A stretch of DNA of 64,000 nt from Escherichia coli (GTDB taxonomy: Bacteria > Pseudomonadota > Gammaproteobacteria > Enterobacterales > Enterobacteriaceae), in the NCBI RefSeq assembly GCF_030384885.1, contig NZ_CP128613.1; one strand, given 5' to 3'. Of the stretch, positions 2,636 through 36,928 are shown piece after piece. The notes beneath the pieces are model-generated. The model was not told the DNA's origin. It saw only the letters and a program-made list of their open reading frames with translations, and did no database searches. The first letter of the stretch is position 1, and each line of letters opens with the position of its first letter. Both the position numbers and the translations under genes were made by a program.

Positions 2636-2637
2636 GG

Positions 2638-10185: not shown

Positions 10186-10189
10186 GCGT

Positions 10190-11009: not shown

Positions 11010-11068
11010 AATGCACTCCTTATGTTAACGAAAGGATTGTACAGTAAAGCGCATTTGTTAACGAATCA

Positions 11069-14423: not shown

Positions 14424-14469
14424 AAGACTGCTAAAATGGTTTTTTGCCTCATCAACACCTGAAGGCCTC

Positions 14470-14940
14470 ATGCTAAGTAACGATATTCTGCGCAGCGTGC
14501 GCTACATTTTGAAAGCCAATAATAACGACCTGGTGCGCATTCTGGCGCTGGGTAATGTCGAAGCCACTGCGGAACAGATCGCCGTCTGGCTACGCAAAGA
14601 AGACGAAGAAGGGTTTCAGCGTTGTCCGGACATTGTTCTGTCTTCATTCCTGAATGGCCTGATTTATGAAAAACGTGGCAAGGATGAGTCAGCTCCGGCA
14701 CTGGAGCCGGAACGTCGCATTAATAACAACATCGTGCTGAAAAAATTACGTATCGCGTTTTCGCTGAAAACTGATGATATTCTGGCGATCCTTACCGAAC
14801 AGCAGTTCCGCGTTTCGATGCCGGAAATTACGGCGATGATGCGTGCACCGGATCATAAAAACTTTCGTGAATGCGGCGATCAATTCATGCGTTATTTTCT
14901 GCGTGGGCTGGCAGCGCGCCAGCATGTGAAGAAAAGCTAA
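14470..14940 (+). CDS. yehS: Uncharacterised protein YehS (DUF1456 tandem domain)
   Basis: ORF 14413-14940; ATG at 14470 gives 156 aa beginning MLSNDILRSVRYILK. Confidence 0.85.
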   Translation: MLSNDILRSVRYILKANNNDLVRILALGNVEATAEQIAVWLRKEDEEGFQRCPDIVLSSFLNGLIYEKRGKDESAPALEPERRINNNIVLKKLRIAFSLKTDDILAILTEQQFRVSMPEITAMMRAPDHKNFRECGDQFMRYFLRGLAARQHVKKS

Positions 14941-17567: not shown

Positions 17568-18700
17568 GACTGAAGATTCTCCGCAAGCCAGGTAGCCAGT
17601 TCGCCCGGTGTCATGGCAGCTATTTGTGCGCCGACATTTACCAGCGCCTGGGCTGTATCGCGGTCGTAGCAAGGTGTTGCGGTGCTATCGAGCGCTGCCA
17701 GTCCCAGCACTTTGATGCCGCTCTGGACACACTTTTTCACCTGATGCGTCAGCAAAGATGATGAACCCCCTTCATAAAAATCGCTCACGAGTATGATGAC
17801 GCTTTTCGCTGGTTGTTCAATAAGTTGCCGACCATATTCCACGGCACTGGCGATATTGGTCCCGCCGCCCAATTGTACTTTCATTAATAACTCTACCGGA
17901 TCGGCAACGTCGGCAGTGAGATCGACGACGTTAGTGTCAAAAGCGACCAGATGGGTACGAATGCCGGGTAACTGCCATAAACAGGCCGCCATCACCGCTG
18001 AGTGGATCACCGAGTCAACCATCGATCCGCTTTGATCAACCAGTAACACCAGCTGCCATTGTTCGCTATGGCGCTTAATGCGACTGTTAAAGCGGGGGGA
18101 TTCGATATACAACTTGCCGTGTTGCGGGTGCCAGTGTTGCAGGTTGGCGCGCAGAGTACTTTTGAAATCGAAATTACGCGCCAGTGGAATAAATGAGCGG
18201 CGACGGCGATCGCGGACACCAGAAAAAGCCTGACGAACTTCCTTTGCCAGTCGCGCCATAATTTCTTCAACAACCTGGCGCACTATCCGGCGGGCGGCAG
18301 CCAGCACTTCGGGATTCATCAGATGTTTGGTGTGCAAAACGGCGCGTAACAGGCTTTCAGAGGGCTGCATACGTTCCAGCACGTCGAGATTTGTCACTAC
18401 ATCTTCAATGCCATAGCGCAGTACAGCATCGCTTTCCAGCCGCTCAATCACCTGTTGCGGAAACAGCGTGTGAATACTGTTGATCCAATCAGGGGTGGTG
18501 AGATTTGAGCCACCTAATCCACCGGAGCGTTCACCACGCTGGAGCCGTTCAGGATCGCGCCCGTACAGCCACTCCAGCGCGTGGTCCATCCGCCGGGCGT
18601 TGTCATCCAGCCCACAAAGCGTCGTTTCTGCCGCTTCGCCAAGAATTAATCGCCAGCGTTGTAGCTCACGAGTGGTCAGAAGATCGTTCAGTTCAGACAT
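17564..18700 (-). CDS. yehP: von Willebrand factor A domain protein YehP
   Basis: 378 aa beginning MSELNDLLTTRELQRW; MIDAS motif LVLLVDQSGSM; start overlaps yehM stop. Confidence 0.9.
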   Translation of the reverse strand: MSELNDLLTTRELQRWRLILGEAAETTLCGLDDNARRMDHALEWLYGRDPERLQRGERSGGLGGSNLTTPDWINSIHTLFPQQVIERLESDAVLRYGIEDVVTNLDVLERMQPSESLLRAVLHTKHLMNPEVLAAARRIVRQVVEEIMARLAKEVRQAFSGVRDRRRRSFIPLARNFDFKSTLRANLQHWHPQHGKLYIESPRFNSRIKRHSEQWQLVLLVDQSGSMVDSVIHSAVMAACLWQLPGIRTHLVAFDTNVVDLTADVADPVELLMKVQLGGGTNIASAVEYGRQLIEQPAKSVIILVSDFYEGGSSSLLTHQVKKCVQSGIKVLGLAALDSTATPCYDRDTAQALVNVGAQIAAMTPGELATWLAENLQS

Positions 18701-20972: not shown

Positions 20973-20982
20973 GCATCTTTCC

Positions 20983-22071
20983 TCACGGCAGGCGGTGGCG
21001 AGCTTGATAATAAGCCTGCCAGTGAGCTTCTTTATGTGTAGCGACACGCTGTTCGAAGTAACGGCGCAGACGTGCGCGATCTTCTTCGTTATCTTTGACG
21101 ATGGTTCCGGCAATACAGTCTACCAGGTCGGCAGGCTCCCCAGCGCGATTCGCTAAAAACCAGGCGCGGAAACCCACGGCGTGTGCTACGTTAACGGCTT
21201 CAGCGGTGGACATAATCGCTGTAAGGGTATCCATTGAGGTTTTCTTTTCGCCGTTGGCACGCAGATCGCGGAAGGTGCGGACCAGTAACTCCAGTACCGC
21301 GTCAGGCACTTTATGCGGAATACCGCTATGGGCCAGCAAACGTGCCGAAGCGCTGGCGACAAGCTCCAGCTCCTGGGCGAAATCCATAATCGGAAAGACA
21401 GTTTCAAAATCGAAGCGACGCTTGAGTGCGGCACTCATTTCATTGACGCCGCGATCGCGGGTATTGGCAGTAGCAATAATATTAAAGCCTTCCCGCGCAT
21501 AGAGCTGACTGGCTTCACCAGTGAGTTCCGGCACCGTCATAACCCTGTCAGAAAGCATACCTAACAGACAGTCTTGTACTTCCAGTGGTGTACGCGTTAT
21601 CTCTTCAAAACGGACAATTTTGCCGTCGCGCATTCCCTGGTAGAGCGGGGCAGGGACCAGCGCTTCCGTTGACGGACCATGGTTGATAAGCAGGGCGTAG
21701 TTCCAGCCGTACTTGATTTGATCTTCGGTGGTAGATGCGCCGCCCTGGATGGTTAACCCGGCATCGCCGCTAATAGCGGTTGCCAGTAATTCAGACAGGA
21801 GCGATTTTGCGGTGCCAGGTTCCCCCACCAACATCAAACCGCGCCCGGTAGCGAGAGTGACTAACATGCGTTCGACAGCGGAGGGGCTAATCACGACTTT
21901 ACGGCTAATATTTTGTGCTTCGTCGCCAAGGATAAAAACACGGGCCGCAGGCAAACTTAACTGCCAACCGGGCGGGCAAGGTGCGTGATCATTTTGTTTT
22001 AATTTTGCCAGTTCATCGGCGTATAACACAGCGGCAGGCGGACGCTGCAGATGATTATTCTGCGGTGACAT
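20983..22071 (-). CDS. yehL: MoxR-type AAA+ ATPase YehL
   Basis: 362 aa beginning MSPQNNHLQRPPAAV; Walker A GEPGTAKS; CbbQ/NorQ-like. Confidence 0.9.
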   Translation of the reverse strand: MSPQNNHLQRPPAAVLYADELAKLKQNDHAPCPPGWQLSLPAARVFILGDEAQNISRKVVISPSAVERMLVTLATGRGLMLVGEPGTAKSLLSELLATAISGDAGLTIQGGASTTEDQIKYGWNYALLINHGPSTEALVPAPLYQGMRDGKIVRFEEITRTPLEVQDCLLGMLSDRVMTVPELTGEASQLYAREGFNIIATANTRDRGVNEMSAALKRRFDFETVFPIMDFAQELELVASASARLLAHSGIPHKVPDAVLELLVRTFRDLRANGEKKTSMDTLTAIMSTAEAVNVAHAVGFRAWFLANRAGEPADLVDCIAGTIVKDNEEDRARLRRYFEQRVATHKEAHWQAYYQARHRLP

Positions 22072-22182
22072 ATATTCATCCCTGAAATGTATTAATGAAA
22101 TAAACGATATTTTACGCGCAATAAATGTTTGGCGCATTAGTTGTTTGAGCGGAAAATATCTGGAAAGCAGATCACAGTAAAT

Positions 22183-22265
22183 AAAAAAACCTGCTGGTGA
22201 GGCAGGTTCTTTTATTTACTACTTTCAGGCCTAACACCACGGCCTGTGCAACATCGTGTTCCAAC
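22183..22265 (-). ncRNA. orzO: OrzO-like type I antitoxin sRNA (boundaries estimated)
   Basis: Minus-strand -35 TTGCAA (22295-22300), 17-nt spacer, -10 TATAAT (rc of 22272-22277); intrinsic terminator at 22182-22214; 5' ~20 nt (rc of 22246-22265) complementary to toxin 5'UTR 22412-22431 with one mismatch. Confidence 0.6.
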
Positions 22266-22271
22266 GAACGA

Positions 22272-22322
22272 ATTATAACCATCGGTGGACCCCGTTGCAA
22301 TTAAGATAATGAGATTTATAAT
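22272..22322. promoter_or_regulatory. Divergent overlapping sigma70 promoters for the antitoxin sRNA (-) and the toxin mRNA (+)
   Basis: Palindromic TTGCAA serves as -35 on both strands; + strand -10 TATAAT at 22317-22322 places the TSS near 22330. Confidence 0.55.
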
Positions 22323-22503
22323 CCTGACTGTTGGGACGTTGCGCCGGATCGAACCCATTTCAAGTCCTGGCTACCGGACGGGTGGTGCCGCAGGTAGTGC
22401 CCTGATCCGGAGTGCAACATCGTGGTCCAACATACGTAAACCAGTATCGACAGGCAGTGTAAGGGTAAGATGCTGGTGTTGCGCTCCTTAATAAGGAGAG
22501 CGG

Positions 22504-22593
22504 ATGGACACGCTGACACAAAAGTTAACCGTGCTCATTGCCGTACTGGAGTTATTAGTGGCTCTGTTACGGCTGATTGATTTGTTGAAGTAA
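22504..22593 (+). CDS. zorO: Type I toxin, ZorO-like 29-aa hydrophobic peptide
   Basis: ATG at 22504 preceded by SD AAGGAG; translates to MDTLTQKLTVLIAVLELLVALLRLIDLLK; ~174-nt 5'UTR; recognised from memory as ZorO/ZorP family (which paralog is uncertain). Confidence 0.75.
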   Translation: MDTLTQKLTVLIAVLELLVALLRLIDLLK

Positions 22594-22616
22594 CGGGCAA
22601 ATTGAAACGCATCTAA

Positions 22617-22641
22617 GGGGGAAAATACCGCTTCCCCCTTT
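22617..22641 (+). terminator. Hairpin terminator downstream of the toxin ORF
   Basis: gggggaa-aataccgc-ttccccc stem-loop followed by a U-rich tract. Confidence 0.5.
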
Positions 22642-22759
22642 AATAAAATGATTATTGCTTCCATTAATTCACCCGATAACTTTTTTCTTATTTATTAATT
22701 CATCGATTTTATAATTAACGTACATTTGACCGGGATGTGAGTATTTATGGTGGCTATTG

Positions 22760-22972
22760 GCGAAAAATATCTGGAAACCAGATCGCGGAAAATAAAAAAA
22801 CCTGCTGGTGAGGCAGGTTCTTTTATTTACTACTTTGACGATAACTTGCTGATTGTGCAACATTTCGTACCAACGAGTAAATTATAACCATATCCACACT
22901 CCATTGCAATTCAGTGAGTGAGATTTATAATCCTGCCCCTTGGGAGGTTGTGCCGGATCGGACCAATTTGAA
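22760..22972. repeat. Copy 2 of the repeat; truncated toxin-antitoxin unit with no toxin ORF
   Basis: Homology to copy 1 ends about 15 nt before the yehK stop codon; terminator and both promoters conserved. Confidence 0.85.
22793..22876 (-). ncRNA. Second Orz-like sRNA gene (OrzP-like), apparently orphan
   Basis: Minus-strand -10 (rc of attata 22882-22887) and -35 ttgcaa 22904-22909; terminator at 22793-22825; 5' pairing region diverged (gtgcaacatttcgtaccaac). Confidence 0.5.
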
Positions 22973-22986
22973 TTATTTAGAGTATA

Positions 22987-23304
22987 TTATTCTATTTCTT
23001 GGTTGAATATGTTCTGTAGTTCACGATTAAAAATGGCTATTACCGTTTCTGGTGATTCACCTCGTAATTTTCGCTCATCAATAAATTCATCTCTTATATA
23101 AATCAACGCATCATTTATTAGCGGGTCGGCATCTTCTCCATCACGTTGATGAAATGTTGGACGTAGCCGGAATCGTTCCTGTCGATAGACGGAACCTGTA
23201 AATAATTCAGAGCATTTATGGATCTCAAGTCTGAAGGAAAACGGATCTTCAGGTACAGGGACTTCATAATCATAAGTAGCGACCAGCTCTTTTTGCACGA
23301 TCAT
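22987..23304 (-). CDS. yehK: Uncharacterised protein YehK (105 aa)
   Basis: 105-aa ORF 60 nt downstream of yehI on the same strand. Confidence 0.8.
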   Translation of the reverse strand: MIVQKELVATYDYEVPVPEDPFSFRLEIHKCSELFTGSVYRQERFRLRPTFHQRDGEDADPLINDALIYIRDEFIDERKLRGESPETVIAIFNRELQNIFNQEIE

Positions 23305-23364: not shown

Positions 23365-26300
23365 TTAATGGAAAATGACGTCAGGTGCGCTTAACGCTTC
23401 ACTCAAATCAAACGTATCGAGTTCGGCAAAAGTGACAGATTTATTGTCACGGTACACTCGAAGAGAACGGAAGCTCATTAGCGCTTTGCTATCAGCACTG
23501 TAGTGGTTAAAACCGGGTGAAAACTTAAGGACCAGCCGATACTCGCCCAGGTCATAGACACATGCGTCCTCAAAACCTGACTCCCAGCCTTTGTATCGCA
23601 TTCCCATAAGTTGCCCAACGGTTGCGGATTTACCTTCCCAGCGAGTCAGGCTGTTACTGGCTGACTCGTCAGGTGTGAGCAGCACTGTGCGCCGCATCAA
23701 CTGGCGAAAAGGCGGCATAATTTCGTAATCGGCAAAAACCTGTGCAAATTCACTGCGCATTTCTGCTGTCATTTCTAACGGGTGGGCAATGCCAATCAGA
23801 GCATCCGCAGGCAGGTCAATTGGCTCATCTTGTGCGTTGCAGAACTCCCTCTCAGCGGCCACACGAAAGGCGTTAAGTAAACGACGCGGTTCATTTGCCG
23901 GATAAACCGCCCATATTAATCGCTGAGTAACCAGGCGAGTAAAGGGATGATTAACAAACAGAGAATGAAAATCTGCCAGCGACCAGCGTCGAGTGGTGCG
24001 TAGGGCAGTTTCAAGACGCGGGAGCAGGTTTTTGCTCACCTGAGTGGCATCTTTTTTTAGCCCTTTTAGTCGGGCCAGTGCCTCGGGTGCTTTCAGCTGA
24101 TCGTCATCGGCGCGCAACCGGGGAACACTTTTCTGGCGAACGTTTTGCTGATCAAAGATAACCGGGTTGAGGTTTTCATCGAAGCGAACGGTAAACTGCC
24201 GGGGTCCAAAATCAAATATCAACGCCTGCGGATCATCCAGGCCCAGTGTTGGGACTAATCTGTCCGCTAACTCTTCCTGGCTTAGTCCACGATTTTCTGC
24301 GACCACCTGAAGAAATTCCGCCGCGTTATCACGTAAGGGACGGGATTTCGCCCGTTGCGATATATGATGCAGCTGTATCAGCGCCATATCATTATTCATC
24401 AGGGTAAGTATATTCAGACCACTGACAGCACGGGCAGATTTGCCCTCTTGAGGCCAGGCAAGGATCTGTGTCGTCAGATCCCGTGCCGTGCTTTCGTCGC
24501 CAAAGAGACTTAACGCCAGAAATGCCCAGTTGTCTTTTGCGGGAGCACCAGCTTGTTGCCACGCGGTGAAAAGATCCCAGGCAAAAGCGGCCAGCGTTTG
24601 TGGCTGGCAGAACGTTTTCAGTTGTTCCAGCCCGCAATAAAAACGTCCGCCCTGGGTAAAGCGCAGCATTTCGCCAATAATTTCCAGAGCGTCATCAGTA
24701 ACAGGTTGATTATTCGTGATAAGTCTCGGTCTGGACCACATTGTCGGATGCCAGAAATCAGGAGCTTTTGGAATGCGTGTTGGGTAAATCTCTATTGGAC
24801 TCTGTTTAAGTAATTGATCCAGGGCAGGCCATACATCTGTACGCTGCCAGCGGTTTGCCACGGTTTGCAGTAATTCGCCATGCCCTTGTTCATACAGTAA
24901 ACGCAGAGCGCTGAGTGCCGCTTCGCTGTTATCGCCAGACCTGGCAAAGATTAATGGGATCAGCGCCGTAGCCGTATGCTCCGGCCATTGTAAAATCCAC
25001 TGGCGAGCCAGATTACGCTGGCCCGCAAAACGATGCCAGACGCGGGCAACGGGCAGCGCCAGTTCTGTTGCGCCAAAATGAATCAGCAGCGGAAATATCT
25101 CTTTGGGATGTCGGGCAAAGGCGGTGATTAATCCGGGCAAAGCATCGGTACCCAGGACACTTAACAGATATTCTACCCCGGTGTAATGAAAATCAGCCGC
25201 AACAATTTGTTGCCAGCACGATACCGCCATTTCGCGCGGCATCTGCGCGATAAGGTACAGATTCCACACTCCCCAACGCTTTTCATCAGTGTAATTAAAT
25301 TTGCGTTGGAAAGTTCGCCACCCCTCCATCAACGCAACGCTATCTTGTGCCAGTAATGCGCTGGCGGCCTCTTCCCGGTAGTGTTTATTTTCAGTCTGTT
25401 TTGCCTGATAATTGAGCAATCTTCCTAATGAAGTATGTGTCTCTAGTTGATCGGTATCCAGAGCATCCAACTGTCCTGTGAGAATAAACTCATTAAACTT
25501 CCACCTGTGATCTTCAAAACCTAATTCCCGCAAGAAGGTATCTGCCCCTCTGCTTACGAGACGTTCGTCAAAAGACATGGCGCTAAAATGGTCAATTGCA
25601 GTTTGCTGTTCCGGCGTCCAGTGTTTATTCGGCGACCTATACGCTTGCGGTACAAGCGTAAGTTCAGGTAGCGAAAAGTGAGTTATGGAAGTCTTTTTCC
25701 TGCCACGCCATGGTGGTGAAACGAGGATTTCAGGCAGACTGCTGTTATCGGTGCTATCAATAACCGGTTTTGGCGATGCCGATAAATAACTATTCACCAC
25801 TGCCCGGGCTTGAGTACTTAACCACGGGATCACCTCTTCTGCCAGTTGTGGCTGCGATGCCATCAGCGTTTGTAACAGCGTACGCCAGTATTCATCACGT
25901 GCTTTTTGCTGTGCAGGCAGCTTTTTGTCTTCGATGATAGGATAACCAGGGCGCGTAGGGGGGGCTTTTAACGCCAGTAGTTCTGCCAGTGCGGCGAGCG
26001 TCGCATGGGGAAAGTTTTTACTGTATTTAGCCACACGCTGCAGGCTGGGTTTGTTTTTATCGGCAACTAACAGCAAGATGCGAATAATTTGCGGATGGTT
26101 AATTTGTACCAGCAGGCTACCGCAATCTTCTTTATGGGCATACATTGCCAGGTGTGGAATGGCTGCCAGTCCTTGTTCGCGCAAAAGGGCAGCGCAGGCC
26201 GCGTAGCCGAAGTGGTTTTCATGCGACATGTAGCTGGCTTCCCGATCGCTAAATATATCCTGGCTCCAGTAGCGTTCGAGTTTTTTCACCGCTCTGGGGT

Positions 26301-27015
26301 CATTAGCAACAACTTTTAACCACTCCTTAGAATGAAAATGAGTCCGCGGGCATTCAAGGCCTACCAACTCATTGGCGATTTCTGGTTTCTCCGGGAGGAT
26401 GAGTGCAATAAAAGGACGGCGAACTTTGGGTATTCCTGGCAGTGCGGCAATGAGTTTGTCGGCGCAACGCTGCCAGCAGCTTTCCTCTGCCAGAGAGAGA
26501 TGCTTACGCAGTCGGAGATCGAATTCGTTATAGGTTTCTGAGCGATAACCATAACCATCGTCCTCGTTCTGATACTGCAATGTTACTACCAGAGGATCAC
26601 TCTCATAACACCGTACAATAAACTGGCGTGCAATCACCACTTCAGTCGCATATTCCAGTCCCTCTTGTTGGACGATTTCGTCGAGCAACTGTTGGCTATC
26701 ATTTTGCGCGATACAGGCTAGCGCCGCCATTGTCCGGGCCGGAATTGAGGGTTTGTGCTCGCCGATCAAGTTGATGGCTTGCGTAATGGCCGACTGCCAC
26801 TCCAGTGAAAAATTTTCATAACGCCAGACGATGTTTTTTTTCTTCTCAGCAATGTGTAGCAATTTATCACCCAGTGTCTGGATGAGGCTTTCAGTGATAA
26901 CAGGCACCGGTTCGCCCGGCCAATTGCGATGGCTGAGTGGTGTTTTGCCTTTTTTATATTTCAGTTCCAGTTGGGCGTTATCCGCCAGCCACGGTAATTC
27001 CTTGTCCATGCTCAT
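23365..27015 (-). CDS. yehI: Large DUF4132-family protein YehI (MolR paralog lacking the WGR domain)
   Basis: 1216-aa ORF; C-terminal two-thirds alignable with both MolR-like genes (GAPAKDNWAF...FGPRQFTV...YEIMPPFRQL); begins at the position homologous to just after their WGR domain. Confidence 0.88.
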   Translation of the reverse strand: MSMDKELPWLADNAQLELKYKKGKTPLSHRNWPGEPVPVITESLIQTLGDKLLHIAEKKKNIVWRYENFSLEWQSAITQAINLIGEHKPSIPARTMAALACIAQNDSQQLLDEIVQQEGLEYATEVVIARQFIVRCYESDPLVVTLQYQNEDDGYGYRSETYNEFDLRLRKHLSLAEESCWQRCADKLIAALPGIPKVRRPFIALILPEKPEIANELVGLECPRTHFHSKEWLKVVANDPRAVKKLERYWSQDIFSDREASYMSHENHFGYAACAALLREQGLAAIPHLAMYAHKEDCGSLLVQINHPQIIRILLLVADKNKPSLQRVAKYSKNFPHATLAALAELLALKAPPTRPGYPIIEDKKLPAQQKARDEYWRTLLQTLMASQPQLAEEVIPWLSTQARAVVNSYLSASPKPVIDSTDNSSLPEILVSPPWRGRKKTSITHFSLPELTLVPQAYRSPNKHWTPEQQTAIDHFSAMSFDERLVSRGADTFLRELGFEDHRWKFNEFILTGQLDALDTDQLETHTSLGRLLNYQAKQTENKHYREEAASALLAQDSVALMEGWRTFQRKFNYTDEKRWGVWNLYLIAQMPREMAVSCWQQIVAADFHYTGVEYLLSVLGTDALPGLITAFARHPKEIFPLLIHFGATELALPVARVWHRFAGQRNLARQWILQWPEHTATALIPLIFARSGDNSEAALSALRLLYEQGHGELLQTVANRWQRTDVWPALDQLLKQSPIEIYPTRIPKAPDFWHPTMWSRPRLITNNQPVTDDALEIIGEMLRFTQGGRFYCGLEQLKTFCQPQTLAAFAWDLFTAWQQAGAPAKDNWAFLALSLFGDESTARDLTTQILAWPQEGKSARAVSGLNILTLMNNDMALIQLHHISQRAKSRPLRDNAAEFLQVVAENRGLSQEELADRLVPTLGLDDPQALIFDFGPRQFTVRFDENLNPVIFDQQNVRQKSVPRLRADDDQLKAPEALARLKGLKKDATQVSKNLLPRLETALRTTRRWSLADFHSLFVNHPFTRLVTQRLIWAVYPANEPRRLLNAFRVAAEREFCNAQDEPIDLPADALIGIAHPLEMTAEMRSEFAQVFADYEIMPPFRQLMRRTVLLTPDESASNSLTRWEGKSATVGQLMGMRYKGWESGFEDACVYDLGEYRLVLKFSPGFNHYSADSKALMSFRSLRVYRDNKSVTFAELDTFDLSEALSAPDVIFH

Positions 27016-27018: not shown

Positions 27019-30000
27019 TTATTCAAACAGGGCTTCGATGTCGTTAATTAACTCGCTAGCGGTGATGTCATCGAGTGCGGAGAACAGCGCTTCCTGTGTT
27101 GAATTAATCCCCCAGCCATAGCTTTCTGCTTTGCCTTCCCATAGCCACAGCTTGCTTAAGAGTTGCTCGGCACTGAGTTCGGCTGGCGACATACCAACTG
27201 CAAATCCTTCATCGATTTCCATGATTAATGACCAGCGGCCCAGAGGTTTGATCATCCAGCCGATCCAGCCACCGTCCTGCGGTTCACCACGCACCCAGCC
27301 TTTATTCGACAGCCCCATAACCCGACCGCTCGGGCATTTTCTGCCTGCCCAGCGGGTTAGTTCGCTGGTGTTTCGTTCGACTTCAGTCAGGGCATAACTG
27401 TTGCGGTCGAGCTGGCGGAACGGCGGTAACAGCTCGTAGTCGGCAAAAAGCTGACCAAAGGCGGCGGCATCCGTCGGTGATATTTCCAGAACGTGAGGAA
27501 TACCTATAGAGATATCGCCTTCCGGCAGGGTGAAAAGATCATCGTCAGCGGTGCTGTAGCTGTTATCTTCCGCCACACGGAAGCACGCCAGTAACTGGTT
27601 GTCTGCGCTATAAATGCCCCAAATCAGACGGCGGGTTAAGTGGCAGACCAGCGGATTCTCAACCAGAAAGAGCTGAAAGTTTTCTGGCGACCAGCGGCGG
27701 CGCAGGCACATGGCGGATTCCAGCCTTGCCACCTGCTGGGCGGCAACGGTACGCGCATCTTTTTTCAGCAGTTTGTAGCGGTTAACTGCATCGTTCGCTT
27801 GGGTTTCATCATCGCTTTTGTTCGGTTTAGGCAAGTCTTTCAGGCGGCTGCCGGAAGCATCACGCACAAACGGTTTTAAGGTTTCATCAAAGCTGACGGT
27901 GAACTGCCGTGGCCCGAAATCCAGCAGCAGCGAACCGTTATCATCCAGACCGAGATCGGGCGCTAAGCGATCTTCAAGTTCTGCCACTGTGAGTTCGCGG
28001 CTTTCGGCAATGTCGGCAATTTTTTCTTTTGCCCGCTCCTGTAATGCTTTGAATTTCAGTTTCTGGGCGATGCCGTTAAGCTGCATCAGGGCGATATCAC
28101 TACCGATAGCAGCGAGAATATCCAGCCCGACGGTGGCGCGTTTATGCTGGGATTCACCAGGCCAGGCGCGGATTAATGGCGTCAGTTTGCGGGCGGTGTC
28201 ATCGTTGCCAAGAACACCTAATGCAGTGAACGCCCAGCTCTCTTTCGACGGCGCGCCAGCGGTCTCCCAGGCGGTAAACAGATCCCAGGCAAACTCAGCC
28301 AGTGAGTCGGCAGTACAGGCGTCTTTCACCTGTAATAACCCCGCATACAGCGTATCTTCCTGAGGGAAGCGGAGCATTTCACCGAGGTGGAAGAGGGCGC
28401 TATCTGGCAGTGATTGGGCGTTTGCTTTTAATACCGGGCGTGTCCAGAGCGATGGCTGATAAAAGGCCGGAAGTGTCGGGATTTTAGTCGGGTGATTATC
28501 TAAGGGATCGAGCGCAAGTAGAGCGTTCACCGCATCGGTTACTTCCGGCTGGTTATAACGCTGGGCGATTTCTTGCAGTAATGACGGATAACCACTTTCA
28601 ATCAACATACGTAAGGCGGCGCGGGCGTTATCCTGGGCTTCACCAGCTTTGCCGAGTGCCGCAGGCAACAGGCCGATAATGGCATGTTCCGGATATTTCA
28701 GCAGCCAGGTGCGGGCGTCTTGTCGTAGAGTTTTGAGTTTGTTAAAGGCGCGGGCGACGGCAGGAGCCAGCTCACTCGCTGCGAAGTAATTCGTTATGGG
28801 CAAGGCTTCCTGTGGATAGCGTGCAAGTGAGTTTACTAACCCAGGTAATCCTTTGAGTCCAAAATGTAACATGGCGTATTCGGTATCGGTATGCGGAGAT
28901 ACAGTAAGGGCATTCCATGCTCTTATTGCTTTCTCCAGCGGCAATGTTGTCAAAATCCCCAAATGCCAATAATGCCCGGTAGGTGAATGAAACACCTTAA
29001 ATTCACTTATTAAGGTTGAATAATCTTCATTTAGCCATGCCTCAACTACCGCTTCGGGAGCTTTAATATATGTACCAGCGATCCGTCGTTGAAAACCCAT
29101 CCTTGCCAACAGATTGGCAGTACTTTCTTCATGACTAACCGTGATGTGTTTTGAATACCAGATATATTTCGCCAAAAGTTGATTACTGATTTCTTCTGTC
29201 AGATAACTGATTGGCTCAATGCCTAATGGTGCTAAATCAAGCACCGGAATCGACGATTTTTTCTTTTTCGAAAGCCATGGTGGGGAGACTACTATGGCCG
29301 GCAGTAGATCGGTGCTGGCATGGTTTGAGGGCTGTGTCAGTTGTTGCTGGCATGATTTCAGCACTGCAGCTGCGGGTGTCGAAAGCCAGGGAATGACCTG
29401 TTCTGCCAGTGCTGGTTGCGAGATAAGCATCGTCATTAGCATAATGCGCCAACTATTCTCTTCTTTTTGCACTAGAAGTTCCGCCAGTGCTGCCAGTGCT
29501 GCGTGTGGGAACGCAGCGCAGGCTTTCGTCATTCGATCGTGACAGCGTTTAGTATGCCCGGCTACACGTATAAGCAGTGTTAATGCGAACGGATGATTGA
29601 TATGACGCAACACATCGGCGCAGTAGTCACTTGCGGCATAGGGAGCAAATCGGGGCAGGGCTGCAACACCTTGCTCCTGTAATACGGTGGCTGACCATAT
29701 CGCACCACAATAGTAATCATCAAAAATGGCATATGGCTCGTGATATTTTTCTAATGAGGCAAGAATGTGCTCATCAGTCGCCACTATTTTTAGCCACTCA
29801 AGCGAGGGTAATTTTTTTTTCCCCAGTAGACGCTGGGCAATTTCATGTGCAATTTCTGGTTTTTCGGGTAATAACAAAGCAATTAATGGTTGCCGCCATT
29901 CTGGAATATGTGGAATTGCGGCAATGAGTTTTTGTGCACATTTTTGCCAGAGAGACTCTTCCGCCAGTGATAAATGTTTCCGTAGGCGTAATTCAAAACT

Positions 30001-30813
30001 GGAATATTGCTGCAAGTTATCAGGTGCAATGCCAGACGGCAGAATAATAATGATATTATTCGCATAATTCCATTCAATATCAATCTGTTGAAGGTGTATT
30101 ATTACATCAGTAGCATATTCCAGACCGCCTTCCTGAATGATCTGATCCATAACATCCTCACGCACTTTATATCTTGTGCATTTCATTTCAAGTGCCGTGA
30201 GTACAGCCATTACTGGTGATGGTAACTGTGTTGTTTTCAGGCAGTCGATCTGACTGATCGCCTGGGCGACGGTGTTTTGCCATACTAAAGAACAGGCGCT
30301 GAAGTCAAATGTGGCTGTTTTATTATCCCGTTGCGACACGCTACAGGCTAAGCGACGTAACTGGGTCAAGTTGTCTGCTTGCTGAACAGGAACTCCGGGA
30401 AAGCGGCGATGGCTTAACGTGGTGTGTACAACTTCGGGCGGAAAAACGACAGCAATATCTTTCGCCAGCCACGGTAAAACATCATCTGTATTTTTGTCAG
30501 CCACACGGGCTTCTGCTACGCAAAAGGGTTGTTCCTGAATAATGGTGGATAAGGCCGCTACCTTGAGAGAATCCGTTACCGTTTGGGAAGGTTGCAAAGA
30601 ATTATCCTTCGCTTGCTCCACATACCCCTTCTTCATCTTCTCCGCAATCAGCCTCAGTTCCGCTTTTTCCGCCGCCGCAGCATCAGCAAAGCTTTTTACC
30701 TGGCTTTGCCCGTTGGTACCAACTTTGCCCCAACTAATATGCAGCTCGTTTCCCTGTTGCTCCACTGCCCAGAATTTATGTGATTTTTCGTCCTGATAAA
30801 TATAGGTTTTCAT
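27019..30813 (-). CDS. molR: MolR-like protein, WGR domain plus DUF4132 (1264 aa), copy A
   Basis: N-terminus MKTYIYQDEKSHKFWAVEQQGNELHISWGKVGTNGQ is a WGR domain; C-terminal DUF4132-like region; 3-nt gap to yehI start; which copy corresponds to K-12 molR is uncertain. Confidence 0.85.
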   Translation of the reverse strand: MKTYIYQDEKSHKFWAVEQQGNELHISWGKVGTNGQSQVKSFADAAAAEKAELRLIAEKMKKGYVEQAKDNSLQPSQTVTDSLKVAALSTIIQEQPFCVAEARVADKNTDDVLPWLAKDIAVVFPPEVVHTTLSHRRFPGVPVQQADNLTQLRRLACSVSQRDNKTATFDFSACSLVWQNTVAQAISQIDCLKTTQLPSPVMAVLTALEMKCTRYKVREDVMDQIIQEGGLEYATDVIIHLQQIDIEWNYANNIIIILPSGIAPDNLQQYSSFELRLRKHLSLAEESLWQKCAQKLIAAIPHIPEWRQPLIALLLPEKPEIAHEIAQRLLGKKKLPSLEWLKIVATDEHILASLEKYHEPYAIFDDYYCGAIWSATVLQEQGVAALPRFAPYAASDYCADVLRHINHPFALTLLIRVAGHTKRCHDRMTKACAAFPHAALAALAELLVQKEENSWRIMLMTMLISQPALAEQVIPWLSTPAAAVLKSCQQQLTQPSNHASTDLLPAIVVSPPWLSKKKKSSIPVLDLAPLGIEPISYLTEEISNQLLAKYIWYSKHITVSHEESTANLLARMGFQRRIAGTYIKAPEAVVEAWLNEDYSTLISEFKVFHSPTGHYWHLGILTTLPLEKAIRAWNALTVSPHTDTEYAMLHFGLKGLPGLVNSLARYPQEALPITNYFAASELAPAVARAFNKLKTLRQDARTWLLKYPEHAIIGLLPAALGKAGEAQDNARAALRMLIESGYPSLLQEIAQRYNQPEVTDAVNALLALDPLDNHPTKIPTLPAFYQPSLWTRPVLKANAQSLPDSALFHLGEMLRFPQEDTLYAGLLQVKDACTADSLAEFAWDLFTAWETAGAPSKESWAFTALGVLGNDDTARKLTPLIRAWPGESQHKRATVGLDILAAIGSDIALMQLNGIAQKLKFKALQERAKEKIADIAESRELTVAELEDRLAPDLGLDDNGSLLLDFGPRQFTVSFDETLKPFVRDASGSRLKDLPKPNKSDDETQANDAVNRYKLLKKDARTVAAQQVARLESAMCLRRRWSPENFQLFLVENPLVCHLTRRLIWGIYSADNQLLACFRVAEDNSYSTADDDLFTLPEGDISIGIPHVLEISPTDAAAFGQLFADYELLPPFRQLDRNSYALTEVERNTSELTRWAGRKCPSGRVMGLSNKGWVRGEPQDGGWIGWMIKPLGRWSLIMEIDEGFAVGMSPAELSAEQLLSKLWLWEGKAESYGWGINSTQEALFSALDDITASELINDIEALFE

Positions 30814-30825
30814 TGCAAAGTCCTT

Positions 30826-33800
30826 TTAATCAAAAAGTGATTCAACATCGTTAATCAACTCGCTGGCGGTGATGTCGTCGAGCATGGAAAAAGTAAGTAA
30901 AGGTTGTTTACCGTAGCGATCATCTGGCGAGGTGATTTTTACGCTTTCAACAGGTAACAGGTCGCCATAACCTGTTTCACCATAAATTAATGAAAAATGT
31001 TCTGTTTCAAGTTCGAGATCGCCATAAGGGGTAGATTTGCGCATCGCATAGACGCTGCCGCTTTCTTCCAGACGTTGCCAGCCTCGGCGCTCTAGCCCGA
31101 CAATACGTCCGGCCTGACAGAGCTGTCCTTGCCAGCGTGTCAGGTCGTGGGTATTCCGTTCATTATCAGCAAGACGATAACTACCACGATCGAGCTGTTG
31201 GAAGGGGGGAAGCAGTTCGTAATCAGCGTAAATTTGCCTGAATGCAGCGGCAGATTCAGGGGGGATTTCCAGCACATGCGGTATACCGATGTTTCCTGCT
31301 GGCAGCGTGAATAACTCATCCTGCGCATCGCTGTAAGTGCTGTCTTCTGCGACCCGGAAGCAGGCAATCAGCGTGTTTTCTTCAGTATATACTCCCCATA
31401 ACAGCCGTCGGGTTAAGTGACGTACCAGCGGATGCTCCACCAGAAACAGGCGGAACTGTTCTGCCGTCCAGCGTCTGCGCTGGCACATAGCCTGCTCCAG
31501 ACGATCAATCTGCTGACTGGCAATGGCGCGCACATCTTTCTTCAATTGTTTGAAGAGGTTAACGGCGTCAGTTGCCAGTGTTTTATCATCGCTCTGATTT
31601 GGTTTGGGTAAATCTTTCAGGACTTTGCCGTTTGCATCGCGCACTACAGGTTTTAAGGTTTCGTCAAAACCAACGGTGAATTGACGTGGGCCGAAATTAA
31701 GTATCAGCGAGCCGTTGATATCAAGCCCTAAATCTGGAGCCAGGCGGTCTTCCAGTTCGGCCATAGTCAGCCCACGGTTTTCAGCAACTATGTTGATTTT
31801 CTCGCGGGCATGTTCCTGTAATACAACGAATTTAATCTTTTTCGCAATGCCATTAAGCAGCATTAGCGCAACATCGCTGCCAATATCAGCTAATACATCC
31901 AACCCGGACACCGCCCGTTTATGCTGTGATTCCCCAGGCCAGGCACTGATAAGCGGGGTTAATTTACGCGCGGTGTCGTCATTGCCTAAAATCCCCAGCG
32001 AAGTAAATGCCCAGTTTTCTTTTGCGGGTGCGCCAGCTTCTGTCCAGGCGGTATACAGATCCCAGCCAAAGTCAGCCAGTGATTCGCGAGTGAAGGTTTC
32101 TTTGATGATCTCCAGCCCAGCGTAGGCGGTAATGTCGCGAGGAAAGCTCAGCATAGTGCCCAGGTGGCGCATAGCGTCATCTGGTAGAGGCAGGTTGTTA
32201 CTTTTAAGCCGTGGTCTGCGCCATAAGGTGAACTGATAAAAGCCGGGCAGTGGGGCGATTTTTGCGGGATATTCTTCCAGAGGATCGCTATCAAATAATG
32301 TTGCCAGCGCAGCTAAAACATCAGGTTGATTATATCCTTGCGCGATTTTCTCAATCGTTTCTCGCTGGTTTAATTTCACTAGCAGGCGGAGCGCCTGGCG
32401 GGCATATTCCCGATTTTGGCACGGTTTGCCCAGTGCCAAAGGCAGTAGCCCGGCGGCGGCATGGCGCGGGTTATTTGCCAGCCAATTAACGGCATCCTTG
32501 TAAGCCATTTTTTTCTGTAACCGCTGCGCCATTGGTAAGGCTAGTTCACTGGCCCCAATAAAGAGGGTGAATATCCACAGTCGTTGATGATCTCGTTGCA
32601 AGCAGGTCATAAACGCAGGAATGGCCGTACTACCAAAAACTGCCAGAATCTCTTTCTCACCTGAATATCGCTCCTCAATGATTATTTGGTTGAGAAATGA
32701 AATCGCCTGTTGTCCCGGTAAGTAACAAAGCGCAGATAAATTCCAGCTTTTGTTGGCATTGTTGTGATATTTCGCAAACTCAGCTTTTAGTGCTGGAAAA
32801 TCAAAGCGCAACAAGGCATCAACAGCGCTTTGCGGTATGTATTTTTTTTCATGTAAGTCATCTTCGCAATGCAGCCATTCATTAAAACCTAATTGCCAAA
32901 GGATTTGTTGTTCTGGTGTAAAAGGAATGAAAGATGTCTCCCAGCTTTCTTTTTCAATTAGTGGTAGGTCGGTAAATAAGGTTTGCTGTGATGCCTGATA
33001 TTTCGCGATTTCACTGAATCTGGATATGTCAGTGTGACTGATTAACTCTGTAATTCCTGGTGTGATATCCGTGACGGCAGGAATGGGAAGCACAGGTAAA
33101 TCAAATACGGGTATTACATTTTTCTTCTTATTTATTATCCACGGTGGAGCGACAAATAGCTGCGGCAACATATCCGCAGTGGCATACTCACATTCTTTAG
33201 CTACTGACTGAGGACGACATTCAGATAAGATGCCTGCCGCTTTAGCATTAACCCAGGGAATGACGTCAGTGACTAACTCTGGCGTGACGGTAATCAGTTT
33301 GACAAGCGCGTTGCGCCACTGTGCATCTTCATGTATTGCCAGCAAAGTAGCATAAGCGGCAATAGCCGCAGCGGGATGTTTTTGGCAGGCTTTGCTTAAG
33401 TATTCCAGGTGCTTTTTCTTGCCATTTACACCGAGGATCAGAATTTGAATCGCATCCGGGTGATTCGTTTTCCATAGCCATTTGACAAGATCTTCAGTCT
33501 CGCTGATGCGCTCGAAGAGATAAGTGGGATTGTCAGAATGCTCTTCCACAAACTCAGTAAGTATCCGGCTTACACCGCGCCCCCCATTATTTGCCAGCAA
33601 CATTGCCAGATAAGCGCGAAAATCACGATACAACGGTGGGAAGTCGTATTTTTCTGCTGTAGTCAGAGCTATATCATCGGTTACTACCAGTCTTAACCAG
33701 GTTATCGCCGGAACGTTTTGGTCTGCATAATGTAGCGCCATAGCATTGGCAATATCCGGGCGTTCAGGGAGCAGTAACGCGGCAAAAGGTTGCCGTGCTG

Positions 33801-34623
33801 GGGATAGCGTCGGAATAGCAGTAAGCACTTTATCCACACAGCGTTGCCACTCATCTTCTGAAGCGAGTGAAAGATGATGACATAGACGTTGATGCCAACT
33901 CGGTAGCGATTCTGCTTCGTGATTAGGTGGAATGATGGTGGTTACTGCGCCTTTTACTGGTTTATATTTGAGTTGAAGAGCGAGAAGGGCGATTTCAACG
34001 GCACTTTCCAGACCACAGCGAATGACTAAGTCATCGACCAGTTCATCTTGAGAGTAAGAGTTCCAAAAGCCCCAGAGCAATGCTGCATCAGATTGCGCAC
34101 TCCCTGTCGGTTGATTACCCTGAACTCGCATTTGTAACTCAGCAAAAGCCTGCTGCCAGTTTTCTGGATAAGAGCGGTAATTATTGTCGGGGTCATATGC
34201 CCTGGTGTTATTCGCGATGCGCTTCCATATTTGACCATCTTTGTGCAGATAATTGATATCTCTGGGGCGAGAGCGATGTGGAAAAGCAAATCGGTTAATA
34301 TCGTCGGTTAGCGGAATGACTGCATCATCAGCCAGCCATGGGCGTTTGTTTTTACTCTCGGGTGAAGTTTCAACGTCAGGAGTGACTTTGGTGACGGGGG
34401 GGATATGCACGTTTGCCGAAGCGTCTTCCACATAGCCTTTTTTCGTTTTCTCAGCGATAAGCTTCAGTTCCGCTTTTTCCGCCGCCGCAGCATCCGCAAA
34501 GCTTTTTATCTGGCTTTGCCCTTGGGTGCCAACTTTTCCCCAACTGATATGCAACTCGTTACCTTGCTGCCCCACCGCCCAGAATTTATGCGATTTTTCG
34601 TCCTGGTAGATATAACTCTTCAT
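30826..34623 (-). CDS. MolR-like protein, WGR domain plus DUF4132 (1265 aa), copy B
   Basis: N-terminus MKSYIYQDEKSHKFWAVGQQGNELHISWGKVGTQGQ; diverged central region; conserved C-terminus; 12-nt gap to copy A. Confidence 0.85.
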   Translation of the reverse strand: MKSYIYQDEKSHKFWAVGQQGNELHISWGKVGTQGQSQIKSFADAAAAEKAELKLIAEKTKKGYVEDASANVHIPPVTKVTPDVETSPESKNKRPWLADDAVIPLTDDINRFAFPHRSRPRDINYLHKDGQIWKRIANNTRAYDPDNNYRSYPENWQQAFAELQMRVQGNQPTGSAQSDAALLWGFWNSYSQDELVDDLVIRCGLESAVEIALLALQLKYKPVKGAVTTIIPPNHEAESLPSWHQRLCHHLSLASEDEWQRCVDKVLTAIPTLSPARQPFAALLLPERPDIANAMALHYADQNVPAITWLRLVVTDDIALTTAEKYDFPPLYRDFRAYLAMLLANNGGRGVSRILTEFVEEHSDNPTYLFERISETEDLVKWLWKTNHPDAIQILILGVNGKKKHLEYLSKACQKHPAAAIAAYATLLAIHEDAQWRNALVKLITVTPELVTDVIPWVNAKAAGILSECRPQSVAKECEYATADMLPQLFVAPPWIINKKKNVIPVFDLPVLPIPAVTDITPGITELISHTDISRFSEIAKYQASQQTLFTDLPLIEKESWETSFIPFTPEQQILWQLGFNEWLHCEDDLHEKKYIPQSAVDALLRFDFPALKAEFAKYHNNANKSWNLSALCYLPGQQAISFLNQIIIEERYSGEKEILAVFGSTAIPAFMTCLQRDHQRLWIFTLFIGASELALPMAQRLQKKMAYKDAVNWLANNPRHAAAGLLPLALGKPCQNREYARQALRLLVKLNQRETIEKIAQGYNQPDVLAALATLFDSDPLEEYPAKIAPLPGFYQFTLWRRPRLKSNNLPLPDDAMRHLGTMLSFPRDITAYAGLEIIKETFTRESLADFGWDLYTAWTEAGAPAKENWAFTSLGILGNDDTARKLTPLISAWPGESQHKRAVSGLDVLADIGSDVALMLLNGIAKKIKFVVLQEHAREKINIVAENRGLTMAELEDRLAPDLGLDINGSLILNFGPRQFTVGFDETLKPVVRDANGKVLKDLPKPNQSDDKTLATDAVNLFKQLKKDVRAIASQQIDRLEQAMCQRRRWTAEQFRLFLVEHPLVRHLTRRLLWGVYTEENTLIACFRVAEDSTYSDAQDELFTLPAGNIGIPHVLEIPPESAAAFRQIYADYELLPPFQQLDRGSYRLADNERNTHDLTRWQGQLCQAGRIVGLERRGWQRLEESGSVYAMRKSTPYGDLELETEHFSLIYGETGYGDLLPVESVKITSPDDRYGKQPLLTFSMLDDITASELINDVESLFD

Positions 34624-34720
34624 CCGCGTTCCCTGTATTTATATCCAGTTATAAGCGGATGCTAGCAGTTAATGAAAAAAATTAAGAGCGTTGAACAAAC
34701 AAGAAAACAACTTTAGGAAT

Positions 34721-34763: not shown

Positions 34764-36797
34764 TTATTTCACCTGATGGCCCGGTTTAGCACCGGCATCC
34801 GGGCTTAGCAGGAAAATATCTTTCCCGCCAGGACCAGCAGCCATCACCATGCCTTCAGAGATACCGAAGCGCATTTTACGTGGTGCCAGGTTAGCCACCA
34901 TAATGGTGTGACGACCAATCAGTGCCTGCGGATCCGGGTAGGCAGAACGAATGCCGGAGAAGACATTGCGTTTTTCACCGCCGAGATCCAGCGTCAGGCG
35001 CAGCAGTTTGTCAGAACCTTCAACAAACTCTGCGTTTTCAATCAGCGCCACGCGCAGGTCAACTTTAGCGAAGTCGTCAAAGGTGATGGTTTCCTGAATC
35101 GGATCATCTGCCAGCGGGCCAGTCACGGGGGCGGCAGTGGCTTTCACTTCTTCTTTAGACGCTTCCACCAGTGCTTCAACCTGCTTCATGTCAATACGGT
35201 TATACAGCGCCTTGAACGGATTCACTTTGTGGCCCAGCAGCGGTTGCTGGATACCATGCCAGGTCAGTTCCGTATTGAGGAATGCTTCTGCACGCTCGGT
35301 CAGTTTCGGCAGTACCGGCTTCAGGTAAGTCATCAGCACGCGGAACAGGTTTATGCCCATCGAGCAAATTGCCTGCAGGTCGGCATCGCGGCCTTCCTGT
35401 TTCGCCACCACCCACGGAGCCTGTTCATCGACATAGCGGTTAGCCAGATCAGCCAGCGCCATAATTTCGCGCACTGCTTTACCAAATTCGCGGCTTTCCC
35501 ATGCTTCACCAATCACTTCAGCGGCATCCGTGAAGGTTTTGTACAACTGCGGGTCAGCCAGTTCGCTTGCCAACACGCCGTCAAAACGCTTGTTGATAAA
35601 GCCCGCGTTACGGGATGCCAGGTTTACAACCTTATTAACGATATCGGCATTCACGCGCTGGACGAAATCCTCGAGGTTGAGATCGATATCATCAATGCGC
35701 GAAGAGAGTTTCGCAGTGTAGTAGTAACGCAGGCTGTCAGCGTCAAAATGATTCAGCCAGGTGCTGGCTTTAATAAAGGTGCCGCGAGACTTGGACATCT
35801 TCGCGCCGTTCACCGTTACATAGCCGTGAACAAACAGGTTGGTCGGCTTGCGGAAGTTGCTACCTTCCAACATGGCAGGCCAGAACAGGCTGTGGAAGTA
35901 AACGATATCTTTACCGATGAAGTGGTACAGTTCGGCGGTGGAGTCTTTCTTCCAGTATTCATCGAAGCTTACGCTGTCGCCGCGCTTGTCGCACAGATTC
36001 TTGAAGGAACCCATGTAGCCAATCGGCGCGTCCAGCCAGACGTAGAAATATTTGCCCGGCGCGTTCGGAATTTCAAAACCGAAGTACGGTGCATCGCGGG
36101 AGATATCCCACTGTTGCAGACCGGACTCAAACCACTCCTGCATTTTGTTTGCCACCTGCTCCTGCAACGCGCCGCTGCGGGTCCATGCCTGCAACATTTC
36201 GCTGAAAGAAGGCAGATCAAAGAAGAAGTGTTCAGAATCACGCATTACCGGGGTAGCGCCAGAAACCACCGATTTCGGCTCGATCAGTTCAGTCGGGCTG
36301 TAGGTCGCGCCGCAGACTTCGCAGTTATCGCCGTATTGATCCGGGGATTTACATTTCGGGCAGGTGCCTTTTACAAAACGGTCCGGCAGGAACATGCCTT
36401 TTTCCGGATCGTACAGCTGAGAGATGGTGCGGTTTTTAATAAAACCGTTTTCTTTCAGGCGAGAATAGATAAGTTCTGACAACTGGCGGTTCTCTTCGCT
36501 GTGCGTCGAGTGATAGTTGTCATAGCTGATGTTAAAGCCTGCAAAATCAGTCTGATGTTCCTGACTCATTTCGCCAATCATCTGCTCCGGAGTGATACCA
36601 AGCTGCTGAGCTTTCAGCATGATCGGTGTACCGTGGGCATCGTCGGCGCAGATGAAGTTGACCTCGTGGCCGCGCATTCGCTGGTAACGGACCCAGACAT
36701 CAGCCTGGATGTGCTCCAGCATATGGCCGAGGTGGATTGAGCCGTTAGCGTACGGCAGTGCGCACGTCACCAGAATTTTCTTCGCGACTTGAGTCAT
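34764..36797 (-). CDS. metG: Methionine--tRNA ligase
   Basis: 677 aa beginning [29 protein letters not shown] (HIGH motif), KMSKS present. Confidence 0.97.
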
Positions 36798-36928
36798 AGT
36801 AGGCATTACTTCTTAATAGTGAAAAGGGGTTAGATAGTACCAAATGGGAAAATGTTAAGTAAGTACTTCTCTATATTCTTCAGGTAAACTATCAGCTGAT
36901 GGTTTATCTATACAAAAAAGGAGTCGGG

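Follow-up and report, generated by a model that had tools for sequence, protein, structure and literature searches.

The WGR-DUF4132 gene array next to metG

The DNA analysed here, a stretch of 64,000 nucleotides (nt) from Escherichia coli (contig NZ_CP128613.1; hereafter the window), matched the sequence of E. coli 2020CK-00188 at 100%. It contains an array of three large paralogous genes, which we call A, B and C, and our main subject is the close similarity between the 5' ends of A and B, which encode a WGR domain. The coordinates of all features are collected in Table 1. A is the first gene of the array and adjoins metG. The Pfam profile of WGR (PF05406) scored 64.7 bits with A and 62.8 bits with B, against a cut-off of 22 (E-values for the pair, 3e-17 and 8e-18), and covered residues 8-69 and 7-69, respectively; C gave no match. 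All three proteins matched DUF4132 (PF13569) with 161-175 bits (cut-off 27), at residues 999-1182 in A and 988-1173 in B. The RefSeq annotation of the three genes agrees with these Pfam results, and yehK, yehL, yehM and further yeh genes follow downstream. The N-terminus of C aligned with an 'LPWLA' motif that is found in A and B after the WGR domain and a linker. Since A and B are separated by a 12-nt spacer with AAGGA, and B and C by a gap of a few nucleotides, the three genes form an operon-like array. To judge from its sequence, the A-B spacer implies co-transcription and, probably, coupled translation of the two genes.

The same locus exists in E. coli K-12, with the order metG - molR - yehI - yehK - yehLMPQ and genes of the same family. 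However, K-12 has two genes at this place, as opposed to the three intact genes of the window, and its molR (the yehG/yehH pseudogene) is a frameshifted chimera of an A-type 5' end and a B-type body. The body of gene B is the orthologue of the K-12 molR body, which belongs to the sequence type termed cassette class I below. The label 'molybdate metabolism regulator' of molR is an old genetic assignment.

Table 1. Positions of the array genes, their shared segments and neighbouring features in the window (aa, amino acids; ORF, open reading frame)
Feature	Positions	Strand	Remarks
Gene A, WGR + DUF4132 protein, 1265 aa	30826-34623	minus	ORF, Pfam; annotated WP_074500745.1
Gene B, WGR + DUF4132 protein, 1264 aa	27019-30813	minus	ORF, Pfam
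Gene C, yehI-like paralogue, 1216 aa, DUF4132 without WGR	23365-27015	minus	annotated start 27009
WGR-coding 5' segment of A (gene nt 1-195)	34429-34623	minus	B-similar region
WGR-coding 5' segment of B (gene nt 1-195)	30619-30813	minus	A-similar region
Homogenised core of A (gene nt 19-165, codons 7-55)	34459-34605	minus	no fixed A/B difference, 29 alleles
Homogenised core of B (gene nt 19-165)	30649-30795	minus	two-gene chimera junctions within it or at its 3' edge (nt 111-168)
A-B spacer, 12 nt	30814-30825	minus	A stop codon to B start codon; AAGGA ribosome-binding site
DUF4132-coding part of A	31078-31629	minus	
DUF4132-coding part of B	27295-27852	minus	second similarity plateau to A (~70% nt), not homogenised
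metG	34764-36806	minus	A-B-C array lies downstream of it
LexA-box-like CTG-N10-CAG motif, CTGGATATAAATACAG	34633-34648	minus	10-25 nt upstream of A start codon (-25..-10)
yehK, zor-orz intergenic region, yehL (AAA_5 / MoxR), yehM (DUF5682), yehP (VWA_CoxE), yehQ (SWIM)	15576-23304	minus	downstream context
OrzO-P antitoxin small RNA matches, two	22183-22258, 22794-22867	minus	Rfam 98.9 and 90.6 bits (gathering score 60)
ZorO-like ORF, 29 aa, MDTLTQKLTVLIAVLELLVALLRLIDLLK	22504-22593	plus	yehK-yehL intergenic region

Selection and probable exchange at the 5' ends of A and B

The original prediction, made from the letters of the window, was that the 5' ends of A and B are about 90% identical while the gene bodies diverge. 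An ungapped alignment of 30660-30813 with 34470-34623 gave 135 identical positions of 154, and the near-identity was thus confirmed, at 87.7% (i.e., 88%) instead of 90%. The stretch quoted in the prediction as part of these nearly identical 150 nt is exactly the longest shared run, the 25-nt CCGCTTTTTCCGCCGCCGCAGCATC at 30660-30684 and 34470-34494, which encodes Asp-Ala-Ala-Ala-Ala-Glu-Lys-Ala. The 60 nt upstream of the two start codons match at 14 positions, which is chance level, so the similarity begins at the ATG. The number of matches per 15 nt was 11-15 up to nt 195, where the WGR domain ends (codon 65), and 3-7 beyond it. When the genes were aligned by codons in windows of 50, the first window showed 87% nucleotide and 92% amino acid identity, and codons 76-275 showed 32-40% nucleotide identity. 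The C-terminal third including DUF4132, however, stayed at 63-75% nucleotide and 64-84% amino acid identity. Along the whole gene length, divergence is thus strongly non-uniform, whereas a uniform one would have refuted the prediction. The predicted divergence of the bodies is marked after nt ~195 and less so in the DUF4132 third, which forms a second, lower plateau of similarity.

Gene conversion and strong purifying selection on the WGR module had both been proposed for this pattern. Synonymous and nonsynonymous divergence was determined by Nei-Gojobori counts. The ratio of nonsynonymous to synonymous divergence (dN/dS) between A and B was 0.04 over codons 1-66, in line with the proposed selection. 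The proportion of synonymous sites that differ (pS) was 0.51-0.58 over codons 1-50/1-66 and ~0.73, which is saturated, in the body. Where A and B share a residue, the codons were identical in 63% of the cases in the WGR part and in 46% in the body, compared to 45% and 37% expected from codon usage. By a rough estimate, amino acid conservation alone would yield ~78-82% nucleotide identity, which is most of the 88%. The residual excess of identity is small, and the window pair by itself does not decide between selection and conversion. Indeed, these values could be accommodated by purifying selection on the WGR protein alone, with two copies that have evolved independently since an old duplication and have reused preferred codons: the dN/dS is low, about half of the synonymous sites differ, and the excess of identical codons is modest. 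The codons of the 25-nt run are mostly ones that are commonly used in E. coli, e.g., GCG, GAA and AAA.

The population data were much more informative about this explanation. The locus sample consisted of the window, 16 further complete E. coli, E. whittamii, two other Escherichia species and E. fergusonii, and the 20 loci used for the allele set gave 14 distinct A and 15 distinct B alleles. Between gene nt 19 and 165, here called the core, no difference between A and B was fixed and 28 polymorphisms were shared, and the first fixed differences, at nt 15 and nt 168, border the core. The last 900 aligned nt, including DUF4132, had 64 fixed differences and 62 shared polymorphisms (Fisher p = 5e-8 compared to the core). 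The third-position distance in the core was 0.213 within A, 0.169 within B and 0.223 between A and B, a between/within ratio of 1.17. For the DUF4132 part, it was 0.16-0.18 within and 0.52 between the genes, a ratio of 3.1. The core pS was 0.371 for A-A, 0.307 for B-B and 0.386 for A-B comparisons. Furthermore, the nearest neighbour of several A cores, including that of the window, was a B gene. The exchange signal that is weak in the window pair is thus clear in the population. Two separate genes under selection alone are difficult to reconcile with an absence of fixed differences in 147 nt (29 alleles) as opposed to 64 in 900 nt of equally or less constrained DUF4132 sequence. Nor does selection alone account for a paralogue pS in the core that equals the allelic one (0.39 versus 0.31-0.37) instead of the saturated 0.73, or for A genes with B genes as nearest neighbours.

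A control was provided by a tandem array in an unrelated organism (locus L027, GCA_963511125.1, 53.5% GC), in which the WGR domains were 52% identical in amino acids and 62% in nucleotides, and the DUF4132 regions 76-86% identical in amino acids. The WGR domain is not intrinsically ultra-conserved, since these tandem WGR domains share only 52% of their residues, and this also speaks against selection as the only cause. The population data largely refute the selection-only explanation, and we consider it unlikely. The control array (812-14681) comprises four DUF4132 paralogues in tandem, of which the first two have WGR and the last two do not. This gene order mirrors that of E. coli and suggests that such arrays recur in the family.

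The exchange appears to have left mosaic tracts. In a GENECONV-like permutation (n=500), the longest concordant A-B tract spanned 29 polymorphic sites compared to a mean of 18.2 (P = 0.01), and the four-gamete test was failed by 263 of 1485 site pairs. The tract ends differed between alleles, as the B alleles of loci L003, L004 and L010 were A-type through nt 198 and other B alleles switched at nt 168. These observations bear on a further explanation, in which the WGR module was transferred once, fairly long ago, and both copies then diverged independently with no continuing exchange. Such a transfer fits the core pS of 0.37 in the window pair and tract boundaries that roughly match the domain. 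However, fixed differences would be expected to have arisen later, and none was found; the shared polymorphisms lie in mosaic tracts whose end points vary by allele (nt 198 versus 168); and the chimera junctions described below differ among two-gene strains, which indicates that the segment recombined repeatedly. We regard a single transfer as very unlikely.

A nucleotide-level functional element in the 5' coding sequence, such as an RNA structure, a signal for translation initiation or coupling, or a regulator site, could also be kept in both genes. The identity does start exactly at the start codon, and all B alleles have the same nt 1-18, possibly owing to translational coupling to A across the 12-nt spacer. 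However, 32 of the 49 third positions in the core were polymorphic, 21 of them in both genes, and the predicted folding of the two 150-nt segments was no better than that of shuffled sequences (z = -0.26 and -0.27). In addition, the upstream regions of A and B are unrelated (14/60), and no Rfam family was found at the 5' ends, the two OrzO-P small RNAs elsewhere being the only matches. An element of this kind is extremely improbable as the cause of the identity.

Several observations weigh against recurrent exchange between A and B or limit its reach. The 20 loci were picked to span the similarity ranking and do not form a random population sample, and the result of the tract-sharing test is only moderately significant. 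The two cores of the window differ at 16 of 147 nt (pS 0.37-0.373); exchange was not recent in the window strain, and no recent conversion is visible in its genome. The A-B core distance was 0.103 within genomes compared to 0.113 between genomes (14 pairs). Since the within-genome value is barely lower, frequent intrachromosomal conversion is not demonstrated. Haplotypes that differ in copy number could recombine with each other equally well, and the exchange may have taken mostly this route. The smallest within-genome distance, 0.061, belongs to one haplotype that is present in three strains (L004, L007 and L020) with identical A and B 5' sequences. Shared polymorphism was also observed in DUF4132, at 16% of the third positions, so parallel mutation contributes to it.

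Copy number, chimeric genes and cassettes

The original prediction also held that the similar 5' ends create a substrate for recombination between the copies, and proposed a comparison of the locus across E. coli genomes for copy-number variation and chimeric genes. Both were found. A query with the body of A only was used for counting at megablast sensitivity, and it detected the A body in 1643 of 5426 complete E. coli genomes (~30%), with 3783 lacking it; the latter, K-12 among them, have two genes. The whole 12-kb query was found in 615 genomes at >= 80% coverage, which under-counts three-gene genomes because the alleles are very divergent. All six of the two-gene strains examined, including K-12 with its molR, combine an A-type nt 1-15 with a B body of class I. 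The single WGR gene of these six strains starts with MRHF or MKHF and has the A-type C at nt 15. From nt ~200 onward, the K-12 molR pseudogene is 91-100% identical to gene B per 100 nt. The junctions of the chimeras were located at nt 111-141, 130-141 and 162-168, that of K-12 molR being at ~162-168, and they fall inside the WGR segment, as anticipated for a recombination substrate. The A-like part matched different A alleles in different strains.

The strains TUM14697 with two genes and 24AR0070 with three are identical over 677 nt upstream and up to gene nt ~111, and near-identical from B nt ~2200 through the whole of yehI. Their sole difference is that 24AR0070 has the A body and the 5' two-thirds of a class-II B where TUM14697 has a class-I cassette. 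This contrast is a segment replacement, and its left junction lies inside the WGR segment. The strain RM14723 (L026 1511-15765) has four genes, namely a frameshifted A, a B of class I, a WGR gene of class III that is annotated as two pseudogene fragments, and yehI. Two B classes that are otherwise 'allelic' thus stand in tandem within this one genome. Complete A, B and C genes were present in E. whittamii, Escherichia sp. E1V33 and E. fergusonii, and Escherichia sp. MOD1-EC7003 has B, C and, at the place of A, an upstream ORF truncated by the end of the contig. Since E. whittamii, sp. E1V33 and E. fergusonii have all three genes, the three-gene state is most parsimoniously ancestral. It is probably so, the direction of change being deduced from parsimony.

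Taken with the population data, these results make it likely that purifying selection and recurrent A/B exchange jointly explain the 5' identity, and that the same homology serves as the crossover site for copy loss and fusion. A and B would be ancient tandem paralogues of a large protein with a WGR domain, helical repeats and DUF4132, and they probably share one promoter with a LexA-box-like motif next to metG. The WGR protein sequence (the first ~195 nt) would be held by strong purifying selection. Recurrent homologous exchange of WGR segments, by gene conversion or ectopic recombination, would be confined to about nt 19-165, and the A and B cores would then draw on one pool of mostly synonymous variants, with no build-up of fixed differences. 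We infer RecA-type homologous recombination as the molecular event. The ~150-200 bp of homology would also be the crossover point for unequal recombination, through which the A body would have been deleted in most E. coli to leave a fusion of the A 5' end with the B body. The K-12 molR pseudogene would be such a fusion, if the direction was deletion from a three-gene ancestor, as we infer. The WGR homology would further permit the exchange of haplotypes that differ in their cassettes and in copy number (2, 3 or 4).

The processes themselves are familiar. The tufA and tufB genes in Salmonella and E. coli are the textbook case of concerted evolution by RecA-dependent gene conversion. The core of A and B resembles them in that the divergence between the copies does not exceed allelic diversity, polymorphisms are shared and fixed differences are missing. 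However, the exchange between A and B is limited to a ~150-nt 5' domain tract of 3.8-kb genes with saturated bodies, and the copies are not near-identical (6-14% core difference) and show no clear clustering by genome. Fusion genes that arise by unequal crossing-over between tandem paralogues are known from the delta-beta fusion of haemoglobin Lepore and from opsin arrays. In the same manner, the upstream copy has contributed the promoter and 5' end of the two-gene fusion and the downstream copy its body, with loss of the intervening gene; the breakpoints lie in shared homology, and the copy number varies (2, 3 and 4). As opposed to those cases, this is a bacterial chromosome, the events may arise via imported DNA of another haplotype, and the A/B homology is only ~150-200 bp at ~88-94% identity.

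We found no account of the chimeric origin of K-12 molR or of the polymorphism of two, three and four genes in the literature searched, and none of the DUF4132 papers found describes this 5'-end pattern. Purifying selection, gene conversion or ectopic recombination, and fusion by unequal crossing-over are well-known mechanisms; this instance is new to the literature searched. The K-12 'molR' pseudogene appears to be the fusion left after deletion of one of three ancestral paralogues, the full array being retained by about 30% of sequenced E. coli, and this origin matters for annotation, for pan-genome orthology calls at the locus and for reverse genetics of molR and yehI. The locus also offers a clean bacterial example of a short domain tract that is pooled between saturated paralogues and doubles as a copy-number breakpoint.

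The genes of the array are highly diverse among the sampled E. coli alleles. The mean pairwise nucleotide difference was 9.4% for A, 19.9% for B and 8.4% for C, with maxima of 14-32%, in a sample that was chosen for spread and does not give population estimates. The corresponding means for the neighbours were 1.6% for apbC (~2 kb away), ~2% for yehK, 3.9% for yehL and 2-5% for metG. The raised diversity of the hotspot thus seems to reach into metG. Just past metG, apbC encodes an identical protein in nearly all sampled strains.

In gene B, the 5' two-thirds (nt ~200-2200; 27019-30600, compared with L003, L023 and L022) exist in at least three cassette classes that are 50-65% identical and occur at >= 80% coverage in 4023, 690 and 410 genomes, and the 3' third is 93-99% identical across the classes. 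Further sub-cassettes of B exist, e.g., at nt 1600-2100 in L018 compared to L016. Pairwise allelic dN/dS was 0.05-0.48 and highest (0.3-0.45) in codons 66-350, and allelic dS was 0.1-0.7. Since dN/dS was below 1 throughout and dS was in this range, the variants are old rather than demonstrably fast-evolving. Positive selection was considered as the cause of the body divergence and set aside on the pairwise allelic dN/dS, a measure above site level, which was <1 everywhere.

Disrupted copies made up 11 of the 62 genes collected. They were found at loci L002, L004, L006, L008, L016, L017, L019, L025 and L026, and the slot concerned (A, B, AB or C) varies by strain; yehK, yehL and yehM are also broken in some strains. 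Among the haplotypes sampled, that of the window is nearer to E. fergusonii (L030; 23365-34760) than to other E. coli. A was 95.3% and C 96.4% identical between them, the first 200 nt of B differed by 1, and the upstream region was of the same type. This closeness suggests interspecies transfer or trans-species polymorphism. A blaCTX-M-15 transposon, TnMB1860, has inserted into the same DUF4132 region in the ST131 sublineage L1a (PMC9334617), so the locus is also an insertion site for resistance elements.

Protein family, possible function and promoter

The DUF4132 family comprised 5891 cluster representatives at E <= 1e-3, typically of 1200-1300 aa. Family members are variable in the middle and conserved in the WGR domain and the C-terminal ~600 aa. 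In the window and in E. fergusonii, the WGR-DUF4132 genes form an operon set with MoxR (AAA_5), DUF5682, VWA_CoxE and SWIM genes. Two distant metagenomic homologues have WGR-DUF4132 together with AAA_5 (MoxR), DUF5682, VWA_CoxE and a ~675-aa protein, which corresponds to the SWIM protein in E. coli. Pairs of MoxR AAA+ and VWA proteins that act in a chaperone-like manner include RavA-ViaA, CoxD-CoxE and NorQ-NorD. YehL, an AAA_5 MoxR-type ATPase, and YehP, a VWA_CoxE protein, resemble such pairs, and their genes adjoin those of the WGR-DUF4132 proteins. However, the characterised pairs do not include DUF5682, SWIM or large WGR-DUF4132 proteins.

The AlphaFold2 model of the C-terminal 699 aa of B was confident (pLDDT 93.8), and it matched only generic HEAT/ARM repeats. 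In a sequence search of the Protein Data Bank, the sole match was the WGR domain of a B. fragilis protein (2ra8). The only NCBIfam match, far below cut-off, was to the WGR part of an unrelated family. PADLOC-DB 2.0 contained no family matching A, B or C at E <= 0.01, and assignment to a known defence system was rejected accordingly. A scan of genome contigs with a single protein returned only Escherichia relatives and contaminant fragments, and E. coli entries dominated the output of a word-indexed protein search. The literature search gave no papers on DUF5682, and a mention of YehQ in a crosslinking paper was discarded as an entrapment-database decoy.

In poly(ADP-ribose) polymerases, WGR is a regulatory domain that binds DNA breaks. 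A and B share with them the Pfam WGR match, and a LexA-box-like motif together with the SOS listing given below would fit a link to nucleic acids or DNA damage. However, A and B do not have the catalytic domain of these polymerases, and the remainder of the proteins consists of HEAT/ARM-like repeats and DUF4132. With low confidence, we suggest that they may function as nucleic-acid-sensing (WGR) helical-repeat adaptors for a DNA-damage-induced MoxR-VWA remodelling machine.

A broader proposal, which we put forward as a speculation with a low chance of being right, is that the metG-yeh locus is a diversifying conflict system, possibly responsive to DNA damage or phage. A MoxR-VWA-DUF5682-SWIM machine would use the WGR-DUF4132 proteins as interchangeable subunits for specificity or sensing, and the conserved WGR 5' ends and DUF4132 3' parts of their genes would be built-in recombination handles for the swapping, stacking (2-4 genes) and loss of cassettes. 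On this proposal, the central cassettes would be ancient and highly divergent (classes I, II and III; 50-65% nucleotide identity) and would be traded between strains and species. If so, the WGR segment would evolve in concert either as a side effect of cassette shuffling or as an adaptation that serves it. The widespread operon (WGR-DUF4132, MoxR, DUF5682, VWA and SWIM) that contains this diversity hotspot has a LexA-box-like motif. Together, these features give concrete grounds for asking whether the system has a role in DNA damage or mobile-element conflict.

The LexA-box-like CTG-N10-CAG motif upstream of A was kept in 16 of 16 Escherichia loci checked, and the intergenic sequence around it occurs in two very different types. 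A relaxed form of the motif had 20 occurrences across the window compared to 17.3 expected. Since this is the chance rate, the weight of the predicted LexA box rests on its position, its conservation and the literature. molR is listed among the LexA-regulated genes with a known SOS box (PMC6590174). In addition, the K-12 promoter is activated by BglJ-RcsB (PMC3950696).

Further downstream, the zor-orz type I toxin-antitoxin locus has been described between yehI and yehL in O157:H7 and is absent from K-12 (PMC2887945). Going by the Rfam matches and the ZorO-like ORF, we identify the elements in the yehK-yehL intergenic region of the window as this zor-orz locus.

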